Positions 57,141 through 59,402 of a stretch of 64,000 nt of DNA are shown piece after piece. The notes beneath the pieces are model-generated. The model made no database searches. It had not been told where the DNA came from and worked only from the letters and a program-made list of their open reading frames with translations. Every line of letters starts with the position of its first letter. The first letter of the stretch is position 1. The stretch comes from a virus: the IMG/VR virus record IMGVR_UViG_3300017917_002918, positions 103,402-167,401 of that record; one strand, given 5' to 3'. The translations under genes were made by a program, and so were the position numbers.

Positions 57141-59402
57141 ATGTCTAAACAATATGGTATCAAGGAAGTTCTAAATTGTGCTTTCTATGACTACACAACT
57201 GGTGCGGAATTGTTTTATGCTGACTACATGTCAGACGCATCAATCGAAACAAGTGCCGAAAGACTCGATTAACCACAAAATGGTCGCTTCTAGTAGTAAT
57301 ACTAGTCGAAAACTCCGAATATGCTGGAACAACCTTTAGAGTCTTTAATAGTAATTTATATTAGAAATGATATAAATATCTGAAAATTTAAAGAATTGGT
57401 CAATCAGCAGAGATAGCCCTAAGTTACTTATGTGATATGGGAAGCTCTCAGAGACTATCAAGGAGCATCCTTAATGGATGATGGTATAGTCCACTCCCTT
57501 TAAATATCGGGAAACCGAGGGTATGTAGGCTAAGAGGTGGACAAGGTAACTACAAGCTTTTGTCATTTGACCACACAAAAACAATGACATTTAAAGCTGA
57601 AATGCCACTTGTTGACTTGACCGCAGTAGCGATGTTGACAGGTAAAGCTCTAAACGTAGGTAGCGTTAATATTCCTAAAAGAGAAGTATTAACTTCAGTT
57701 GGTGCAACGCCTACAATTACACTTGCAGCTACTCCAGTTGCAGGAACATTGAAAATTTATGCTATTTCAAACAGAGATGTTGGAACAGAGCAAACAGCAG
57801 GTACACCAACAAGTACACAGAATCAATATTCAATTTCTGGTACAACAGTTACACTTAATGCAACATCTGGTGTAGCAGGAAGTACATTTTCAGTTAGTTA
57901 TACATATGCAAGTGCTGCAACTGCTAGTACTACTACATTTACGGCTGACAAATTCGCAGGATTGAATTACAGTCCCATATTGCAGTAATGCAATAATGAA
58001 AATTCCGAATATGCTGGAACAACCTTAGAGTCTTTAATAGTAATTTATATTAGAAATGATATAAATATCTGAAAATTTAAAGAATTGGTCAATCAGCAGA
58101 GATAGCCCTAAGTTACTTATGTAATATGGGAAGCTTCCAACGACTACCAAGGAAACGCCTTATTTTAGGTGTATTGTATAGTCTATTCCCCTAATAAATA
58201 TCGGGAAACCGAGGGTATGAAAGATGTGCGAATTTTAGGAACAGGAATTGTAACCGATTAATAACATGGTCGCCTCCAATAGTAATATTGGTTGAAAACT
58301 CTGAATATGCTGGAACATCCTCTCAAGGATAATCCTTGATGTACAATGGTTATAATTGTACAAGAGCCTTTGATAGTAAACTTCATTAGAAATGATTAAG
58401 TTATCTTAAAATTCAAAGGATTGGACAATCAGCAGACATAGCTCTAAATCATACATTACGTATGACATGAGAAGGTCTCAACGACTACCAAAGAGATACC
58501 TAGTATTAGGTATATGGTATAGTCTACTCCGTATATAAATATTCCGAAAGGAACGGTATAAAGGCAAATCACAGGAGCAAACGTAATAAGTGTATTTGAT
58601 ATCAAGAAAGCAAAGGTAATTGATGCCTCGTATGTACAGAAATGTGCATAGGACATGACACGTATAAGCAGGTAATTCCTAAAGCTCACTGCCACAATAT
58701 AAAGATGAAATAGGCTTAATATGATGGAACGAAAGTAGAAAAAAGTGTGAGATGAATATATGGTTAAATCCTAAGTATTCGTAAACAATGGATGTTCATG
58801 CTGGGAATCTTTGAATAGAAGAGCCTTCAACGACTATGGCTGAAATGCCAGTACACAGTAAGCTATTGACTGTGGAAGTGTGTCACCCTTAACGGATTAT
58901 GCCGAAGGTGAAGAAGTAGTCTCCACTCATATGAAAGTATGAGGTGTCGTTAAAGACACTCTTATGAAGTAGCGTTCATAGGAAAAGATGATTTAATTCT
59001 TACGAGAATTAAATTGGCAAAGAACAATTGGAGTATCACCCAAAAGTCAACGGACGCAACGAAATTAACACTGGATTAAATTAATAGTCCCATATTACAG
59101 TAATGTAATATTGCAAATCTCTTAAACTGCTGGAAGTTCCTTAGAGCCTTATAAACTACAACGTAGATGGTAACGTCAAGCGTGAATGTTTGAAAATTAT
59201 AAGGATTGGATAATCAGCAACGAAATTCCTGTTATGCAGGAAGACGCTCAACGACTACGATAGAGGTTGCCTTATTTATAGGTAAATGGTATAGTCTACT
59301 CCCCTAAGAAATATCGGGAAACCGAGGGTATAAAGGTTTGATTTATATGCAGTTGATGTTAATAATGAGAAATTGTACGTAACAATGACGGCTTTGACTT
59401 AA
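57141..59402 (+). CDS. major tail tube protein (YomU-like); exons 57141-57269, 57530-57962, 58224-58258, 58565-58616, 59018-59076, 59337-59402 (257 aa)
   Basis: Exons total 774 nt in one open frame: ..ERLD|LRGGQGN..FAG-Y(split)VRILGTGIVTD|QITGAN..IKKAK-A(split)KNNWSIT..LTLD|FDLY..ALT*; GGAGG RBS; synteny. Confidence 0.85.
57270..57529 (+). ncRNA. group I intron 1 of tail tube gene (260 nt)
   Basis: P1 CGAU/GUCG; UGCUGG..AAUCAGCAG; AGAGACUA/UAGUCC; P9.0 CU/AG; terminal G. Confidence 0.92.
57963..58223 (+). ncRNA. group I intron 2 (261 nt)
   Basis: P1 GGAU/GUCC; same core; ACGACUA/UAGUCU; P9.0 UU/AA; terminal G. Confidence 0.92.
58259..58564 (+). ncRNA. group I intron 3 (306 nt)
   Basis: P1 CGAU/GUCG; UGCUGG..AAUCAGCAG; ACGACUA/UAGUCU; P9.0 CU/AG. 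Confidence 0.92.
58617..59017 (+). ncRNA. group I intron 4 (401 nt, different subtype; 5' boundary uncertain by 1 nt)
   Basis: AAGCAGG..CAUGCUGG; ACGACUA/UAGUCU; P9.0 CA/UG places terminal G at 59017. Confidence 0.85.
59077..59336 (+). ncRNA. group I intron 5 (260 nt)
   Basis: P1 GGAU/GUCC; CUGCUGG..AAUCAGCA; ACGACUA/UAGUCU; P9.0 CU/AG. Confidence 0.92.

Follow-up and report, generated by a model that had tools for sequence, protein, structure and literature searches.

The stretch of DNA analysed in this work, hereafter called the window, is the final 64 kb of the 167,401-bp virus record IMGVR_UViG_3300017917_002918 of IMG/VR, a metagenome assembly which carries direct terminal repeats and is estimated to be complete. 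Residing on the plus strand of the window, between positions 57141 and 59402, is very probably a major tail tube gene of the YomU_Tube type, colonised by five group-I-type self-splicing RNAs, none of which encodes a protein. The introns, termed I1 to I5, account for 1488 of the 2262 nt of the locus (66%), and the six exons, once joined, make up a coding sequence of 774 nt which specifies 257 aa followed by a TAA, with no internal stop. Four of the introns (I1, I2, I3 and I5) are classical small group I introns; the remaining one, I4, is, judging from its sequence, a derivative of a group-B-type IStron ribozyme devoid of an open reading frame (ORF), from which the transposase and TnpB part has been lost. 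The locus is made of known pieces found here in a more extreme form: a single YomU-type gene of 774 nt hosts five introns, which belong to two lineages.

The limits of the exons were set with tblastn: four uninterrupted homologues of 254-265 aa, used as queries for the region, returned six colinear pieces, all on the plus strand. A ribosome-binding site, AAAGGAGG (57126-57133), read from the sequence, is located 7 nt 5' of the ATG at 57141. Exon 1 (57141-57269, 129 nt) encodes residues 1-43, ends in ...ERLD with CGAU as final bases, and matches residues 1-43 of the homologue P0004 (72% identity, E 3e-18). Exon 2 (57530-57962, 433 nt) provides residues 44-187 and the first base of codon 188, at 62-78% identity and with E values down to 1e-75. 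The four exons at the 3' side are much smaller. Exon 3 (58224-58258, 35 nt) finishes a Tyr codon and then reads VRILGTGIVTD; it matches residues 191-200 of P0030 (80% identity), and its inclusion raises the score of the product in the profile search described below. Exon 4 (58565-58616, 52 nt) reads QITGANVISVFDIKKAK plus a G, and corresponds to residues 198-214 of P0008 (65% identity). Exon 5 (59018-59076, 59 nt) finishes an Ala codon, continues with KNNWSITQKSTDATKLTLD, and matches residues 214-233 of P0004 (70% identity, E 1e-5). Exon 6 (59337-59402, 66 nt), which reads FDLYAVDVNNEKLYVTMTALT followed by the TAA, matches residues 234-253 of the same protein (50% identity). An initial annotation of the locus, made from the letters of the DNA, had proposed the same six exon lengths and the same 1488 intronic nt, and had predicted that the spliced protein is colinear with intron-less YomU-like genes; the tblastn map reproduces its coordinates to the base and bears the prediction out. 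The remark that the 257-aa frame escapes the ORF track holds as well, since the ORF list compiled by program features at the locus only scraps, the biggest of which is a fragment of 142 aa. Genes split in this way are missed completely by gene callers.

The identity of the protein is supported by several lines of evidence. The longest open piece retrieved, in a protein search, 101 homologues of 253-281 aa, all featuring PF27173, a family for which the name YomU_Tube was taken from the gene table of a relative, L041. The spliced product can be aligned end-to-end, and free of gaps, to more than 100 uninterrupted YomU-type tail tube proteins of siphophages. In an alignment of 36 family sequences 257 of 257 residues are placed, no gap occurs where the majority has a residue, and the top identity is 71%. 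The hidden Markov model (HMM) of these 36 members assigns 399.6 bits to the full product, 302.2 bits to exons 1 and 2 alone, and 86.3 bits to the 70 aa encoded by exons 3 to 6 alone. Permuting the order of the exons lowers the score, the natural order being the best and the other 23 reaching at most 355.9 bits. Because the micro-exons 3 to 6 have an HMM score of their own, and because the natural order outperforms 23 others, they are not chance matches. A match to phrog_2729, annotated as virion structural protein (E 3.6e-26), supports exon 2 in particular, and the family profile matches tail tube proteins of the PDB at the sequence level (E 2e-11). For the uninterrupted homologue P0001, which shares 66% identity with the spliced product, AlphaFold gave a model with a predicted local distance difference test (pLDDT) of 85.8. 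In Foldseek comparisons the model matched the siphophage tail tube structures 8ygm_A, 8xkn_B and 9jgh (E 3.5e-16, template modelling scores 0.73-0.80), and the structures matched include the tail tube protein of the SPbeta-like phage SPR. These data support the assignment of the gene as a tail tube gene of the YomU_Tube siphovirus type, as claimed in the initial annotation, the fold being that of the homologue P0001 rather than that of the joined protein of the window. The nearest uninterrupted relative of the gene resides in L041, a JGI contig of 4.4 kb, which shares with the window the gene order YomV_2nd, YomU_Tube, small ORF, Anp1-like, GT1 glycosyltransferases. The idea that the introns had been inserted at specially conserved residues was discarded, conservation at the five junctions being unremarkable (percentiles 79, 29, 51, 67 and 39 of the protein in the 36-sequence alignment).

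The intervening sequences fall into the group I class. A cmscan search run in E-value mode over the 2.8 kb spanning positions 56900-59700 detected five plus-strand matches to the Rfam family RF00028 (gathering score 50 bits), all with E values not exceeding 6e-5 and each falling on a different intron: I5 (59067-59318, 50.1 bits, above the gathering score), I1 (57260-57511, 41.6 bits, E 1.4e-8), I2 (57953-58292, 40.8 bits), I4 (58752-58943, 29.9 bits) and I3 (58341-58546, 29.5 bits, E 6e-5). Over the whole genome the same family gave three matches, this being an insensitive search. As listed by program, no plus-strand ORF longer than 33 aa is present inside I1 to I5, and the view of the initial annotation that the gene hosts five ORF-less introns of the group I type is hence in line with both searches. 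The reading frame of the upstream exon meets a stop codon early in each intron: a TAA at the very start of I1, I3 and I5, and a stop 8 codons into I2 and 11 codons into I4. In-frame stops near the start of the intron have been often noted for phage introns (PMC3984707).

I1 (57270-57529, 260 nt), I2 (57963-58223, 261 nt, home to the repeat families D1 and D3), I3 (58259-58564, 306 nt, with an extra hairpin in L5) and I5 (59077-59336, 260 nt) are paralogues, as revealed by the repeat families and by blastn, and range in size from 260 to 306 nt. In each of them the 5' exon ends in a U, which forms a U.G pair with the G of a guide of 4 nt. The internal guide sequence (IGS) is GUCG, facing exonic CGAU, in I1 (57283-57286) and I3 (58269-58272), and GUCC, facing exonic GGAU, in I2 (57972-57975) and I5 (59087-59090). 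Downstream of the guide comes a P2 hairpin capped by GUAA, and the intron is closed by a terminal G preceded by a 2-bp P9.0, which is CU/AG in I1, I3 and I5 and UU/AA in I2. RNAalifold, run on the four copies, independently recovered P2 and P4-P9. A structure drawn by hand, which comprises P2, P3, P4, P5, P6, P7 (with the P3/P7 pseudoknot), P8, P9.0, P9 and a GAAA-capped P9a, has 97.7% of its cells paired; displacing the 3' partners by 1-3 columns reduces this to 32-47%. Compensatory changes occur at 19 of the 43 pairs, a figure reached by none of 500 shuffles. P4 and P7 are invariant across the four copies, and in I3 the helices P9 and P9a differ from those of the other three by compensatory changes.

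I4 (58617-59017, 401 nt) differs. The initial annotation had credited all five introns with one and the same architecture; this is correct for I1, I2, I3 and I5, which have a classical P1, and fails for I4, in which the geometry of P1 is not classical and the ribozyme is of IStron derivation. The element is inserted after AAGG, and its 5' exon ends in G58616 rather than in U. Colinearity of the exons requires the join AAG G|CA AAG, translated as KAK-A-KNNW, as in the homologues P0004 and P0008. The first base of the intron, U58617, pairs with G58625 of the IGS GCCUC (58625-58629), and the U.G pair is consequently located one base past the splice site, in the layout AAAGG|UAAUUGAU-GCCUC. The loop of P2 is GAAA and P7 is GACUA/UAGUC; P9.0, CA/UG, sets the terminal G at 59017, and a perfect AU-rich hairpin of 10 bp is found at 58993-59016. 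The same arrangement has been described for group B IStrons, including the elements of the phages c-st and D-1873, which are inserted after sites ending in GG, contribute the U as a base of their own, and have the U.G pair one base off the splice site, where it closes the loop; in BcISt1, splicing after G has been demonstrated experimentally (PMC4227781). The splice site of I4 after a G would thus reflect the ordinary behaviour of a group B IStron, and not a defect.

The relationship is supported by homology. In blastn, I4 has matches of 72-75% identity in the IStron regions of the Clostridioides phage ES-S-0173-01 and of c-st and D-1873. The region matched in D-1873 is annotated as a group I catalytic intron, and that of c-st is located directly upstream of a transposase gene. 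The c-st element has the exon junction GAGG|U, the same IGS GCCUC as I4, and CGG at the 3' end. When I4 was aligned to the IStron ribozymes of c-st, of ES-S-0173-01 and of the tape-measure gene of the window genome, P2, P4-P6, P7, P9 and P9.1 turned out to be common to the four RNAs, with compensatory changes at 26 of 70 pairs. No ORF of at least 30 aa is found on the plus strand within 58617-59017, and the IS607/IS605-type ORF by which a group B IStron is recognised is missing. Because insertion sequence (IS) genes are lacking, I4 is classed with the ribozyme lineage, as a derivative devoid of ORFs, and not with the full IStrons. ORF-less derivatives of BcISt1 occur in B. cereus, and the IStrons CbISt3 and CbISt4 reside in the Clostridium phages c-st and D-1873 (PMC4227781). 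I4 resembles group B IStrons in the GG-ending site, in the U as first base, in the loop-closing U.G pair one base off, in the homologous core, and in the AU-rich terminal stem-loop, which is kept at the position where the IS part would be. It differs from them in lacking a transposase or TnpB ORF, in the last three bases, and in being lodged in a phage virion gene beside four classical introns. The paralogue of I4 which carries TnpB in the window genome ends in TCAG, an end of the group A type.

Other solutions for I4 were considered and set aside. If the cut followed U58617, with the terminal G at either 59016 or 59017, the frame would shift and a stop would be met in exon 6, and the group B rule was preferred; no other combination of U and G restores the frame of the family. 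A sequencing error at C59018 is a needless assumption under the same rule. The P4 strand of I4 had been tentatively assigned to GCUGGGAA (~58795); this is wrong, as the four-way alignment places the 5' strand of P4 at ~58668.

The four sibling introns probably multiplied inside the tube gene. Identity among them, measured segment by segment, does not fit a tree, which marks them as mosaics. In the P1-P2 module I1 is closest to I3 (69%) and I2 to I5 (73%), the other pairs being at 42-59%. From the extension of P5 to P4' I1 and I2 are 100% identical (72/72), and in P6 they are 95% identical, all other pairs scoring lower in both segments. In the P7-P3'-P8 block I2, I3 and I5 are 76-80% identical among themselves and I1 is at 63-65%. 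I1 and I2 share repeats of 85 nt (100% identity) and 138 nt (93% identity). The near-identity of their P4-P6 domains points to later recombination, or gene conversion, between the copies. The sites of each guide-sharing pair (I1/I3 and I2/I5) have little in common beyond the 4 nt paired to the guide. Sites which share only the guide-complementary 4 nt are predicted by reverse splicing, and not by homing driven by an endonuclease with a long recognition site; sibling pairs of this sort are circumstantial evidence that introns spread by reverse splicing in a phage gene which encodes a protein. Both the mode of spread and the order of events are inferred, and evidence for endonuclease-independent spread has so far come mainly from introns of ribosomal DNA (PMC3984707). 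A more demanding scenario, in which the introns proliferated within the gene by reverse splicing, had their cores homogenised later by gene conversion, and engage in cross-intron splicing so frequently that this five-ribozyme system must actively secure the inclusion of its exons, appears rather doubtful.

As for the expression of the gene, each ribozyme would fold after transcription and use an external guanosine to cleave its 5' junction, and the flanking exons would then be joined at the terminal G of the intron. I4, like BcISt1, would be spliced after G, one base upstream of the U.G pair. The tube protein of 257 aa could be made only from a transcript freed of all five introns. The whole set is best read as tolerated selfish elements residing in an intron-rich, SPbeta-like phage, and not as a regulatory device.

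Other genes of the same genome are plausibly interrupted as well. The intervening sequences of the tape-measure and terminase genes have no RF00028 match, and were traced solely by protein logic and sequence reading. In the tape-measure-like gene (G000:C1:1-12000) the ORF 1647-3524, which has weak matches to PhageMin_Tail and TMP_2, continues in the ORF 6777-11690, and at least three apparent interruptions are found, at ~3470-3745, ~3905-4200 and ~4416-6779, all with the 3' end gaaaguaacagaau. The third hosts an I4-like ribozyme (4718-4978), a TnpB gene (5358-6509) and a RAGATH-18 RNA (6556-6618), and is, to judge from these components, an IStron nested in an intron. A second TnpB gene of the genome (13301-14494 of the window, minus strand), encoding OrfB_IS605 and Cas12f1-like TNB domains, has a RAGATH-18 RNA (13197-13265, 58.5 bits) directly downstream. 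The large subunit of the terminase is split between the ORF 45286-45588 of the window, which ends in ...CCRGIG, and the ORF 45800-47272, which continues with KSWL...; the ~270 nt in between (45541-45811) divide the Walker A motif RGIG|KS and have no Rfam match. The terminase gene of the Clostridioides phage ES-S-0173-01 (CP067352.1, L038) is also interrupted, after ...CTTGAT, by an IStron (1366-3262) in which the ribozyme is followed by a TnpB ORF (2040-3149) and a RAGATH-18-like RNA (3192-3246), none of which is annotated in the record.

Among the IMG/VR relatives examined the tube gene is uninterrupted in 33 of 34 distinct contigs. The exception is L031 (IMGVR_UViG_3300037312_000163), in which a distant YomU-type tube gene carries an ORF-less intervening sequence of 266 nt (3630-3895) with U|...G ends. 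The insertion separates the two Gly codons of LRG|GQG, 9 nt off the site of I1; the sequence resembles the tape-measure introns of the window genome, does not resemble I1, and is not seen by Rfam. The initial annotation had envisaged, as one of its options, that the gene marks a hotspot of intron accumulation, and the interruptions of tape-measure and terminase, together with the nearby insertion in L031, lend weight to this option.

The other option was that five sequential splicing events gate the protein. According to this hypothesis the five steps are kept because they delay or condition the synthesis of the tube protein in response to GTP, Mg2+ or the stage of infection, and exon skipping generates isoforms. 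The gene is indeed unusable without five excisions, and since the guide-target pairs of 4 nt are identical in I1 and I3, and again in I2 and I5, a downstream ribozyme could act on the 5' splice site of an upstream intron, which has been reported for Twort orf142 and for Bastillevirinae genes (PMC10136302, PMC11878797). Junction phases had been correctly computed as 0,1,0,1,0, a series which allows pairs of exons to be skipped in frame; for example, joining the 5' site of I1 to the 3' site of I3 drops 468 nt and leaves the frame intact. Yet, the in-frame deletions would remove, from the tube fold modelled on P0001, the beta-strands 192-202, 208-227 and 235-243, and because these are core strands, functional isoforms are speculation. 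No sensor element was found, and the gene is uninterrupted in L041 and in nearly all the IMG/VR contigs, L031 having a single intervening sequence. Probable introns are found in tape-measure and terminase too, and denote a genome-wide pattern rather than one specific to the tube gene; for this reason selfish accumulation is favoured. A checkpoint is accordingly improbable, and nothing points to the timing or GTP/Mg sensing device specific to the gene which had been suggested. A side effect of the introns on timing is compatible with all that was found.

Selfish accumulation has been also set against the possibility that the gene is decaying, with some introns, chiefly I4 because of the G at position -1, being mis-spliced, and that the gene is a pseudogene of a defective or dying lineage. 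If I4 obeyed the classical U.G rule, the cut after U58617 would cause a +1 frameshift and the stop in exon 6 mentioned above, and all Rfam scores but one, that of I5, are under the gathering score. However, all six exons are open and colinear with the family, the ribozyme cores have invariant P4 and P7 elements and compensatory changes, and the phage genome, which has terminal repeats, is estimated to be complete. Group B IStrons splice after G with the same IGS and the same type of GG-ending target, and P9.0 (CA/UG) sets G59017 as the end of I4, the frame being exact when the 5' cut follows G58616. Decay is, on this evidence, very improbable. Less likely still, to the point of being hardly credible, is that copies of the introns were duplicated or misplaced by the assembler, and that the true gene has fewer of them. 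Each intron is flanked by unique exons, the junctions restore the frame of the family to the base, the guide of every intron matches its own upstream exon, and the copies diverge outside the shared module.

Some points weigh against a tube gene split by five self-splicing introns. The record stems from a metagenome, and the near-identical repeats of I1 and I2 are of the type that assemblers can mishandle. Four of the RF00028 matches (29.5-41.6 bits) do not attain the threshold of the family, and I5 alone passes it. The 3' end of I4 is UGG, vs the CGG published for group B, and BcISt1 is the one element in which a splice site of this non-canonical sort has been put to experiment (PMC4227781). 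Self-splicing of the five introns is predicted from sequence, structure, covariation and colinearity. The route of spread comes without an identified enzyme: no reverse transcriptase, HNH_3 endonuclease or Y1 transposase was found in the phage genome, and no endonuclease is encoded in or beside the tube gene. Of free-standing HNH endonuclease ORFs the genome has a single clear one (G000:C1:98617-98721, minus strand, 148 aa, 31.5 bits), and a match to GIY-YIG is marginal; neither could be linked to the tube introns. Finally, no near-identical relative displaying an empty intron site was retrieved from IMG/VR, JGI and the protein database, in which the best relatives are 63-78% identical; the metagenome contigs of IMG/VR and JGI yielded none above 67% protein identity, and the best entry of the protein database is at 78%.

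Introns in tail tube genes have precedents. The initial annotation had stated that phage introns occur mostly in genes of DNA metabolism, a generalisation which overlooks Twort orf142 and the tail tube gene of the kayvirus 812 (PMC11878797, PMC10136302, PMC6445280). Twort orf142, since identified as the gene of the tail tube, hosts three ORF-less introns of group I (two are near-identical), has an exon of 23 nt, and undergoes exon skipping (Landthaler & Shub 1999, as cited in PMC11878797 and PMC10136302). The gene of kayvirus 812 hosts two non-coding introns (PMC6445280). As in these phages, the tail tube gene of the window is cut by several small ORF-less introns of group I. The window and Twort also share highly similar sibling introns and micro-exons (23 nt in Twort, 35-66 nt here), and similar guides, which are the precondition for exon skipping; in the window the precondition alone is seen. 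The Twort gene is unlike the one under study in having three introns rather than five, which occupy 66% of the locus here, and in encoding a protein of 142 aa, vs the YomU-type siphovirus tube protein of 257 aa. Moreover, the introns of the window are modular mosaics, and one derives from an IStron. Splicing and skipping have been demonstrated for Twort orf142, and are predicted from the sequence in the present case. Bastillevirinae offer a further comparison, as their polymerase and TerL (large terminase) genes carry up to three group I introns each (PMC11878797). Homing endonuclease genes are present in 32 of 45 introns of these phages, the mean length is 802 nt, and small internal exons and exon skipping have been documented by cDNA (PMC11878797). 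The likeness lies in the presence of several group I introns in one essential phage gene. In contrast to the Bastillevirinae introns, all five introns of the window are ORF-less, measure 260-401 nt and reside in a virion gene.

With five introns in 774 coding bases, and exons down to 35 nt, the tube gene of the window would be the densest case: in the literature searched, the coverage of which is partial, the count of group I introns per phage gene was not found to go beyond three. The locus may be exploited as a compact natural system to look at the folding of tandem ribozymes without mutual interference, at the choice of splice sites and at the avoidance of exon skipping. The presence of I4 next to classical introns indicates that remnants of IStrons can survive in virion genes, where they look like ordinary mini-introns.

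Immediately past the tube gene, 25 nt downstream of its stop codon, the region 59427-59600 features a perfect sigma-70 promoter (TTGACA, a spacer of 16 nt, TATAAT; 12/12). About 115 nt after the promoter a terminator-like hairpin (59569-59585) is followed by a run of T residues, and no ORF is found in between. The promoter-hairpin unit could be a gene for a small RNA, or the leader of the glycosyltransferase operon.

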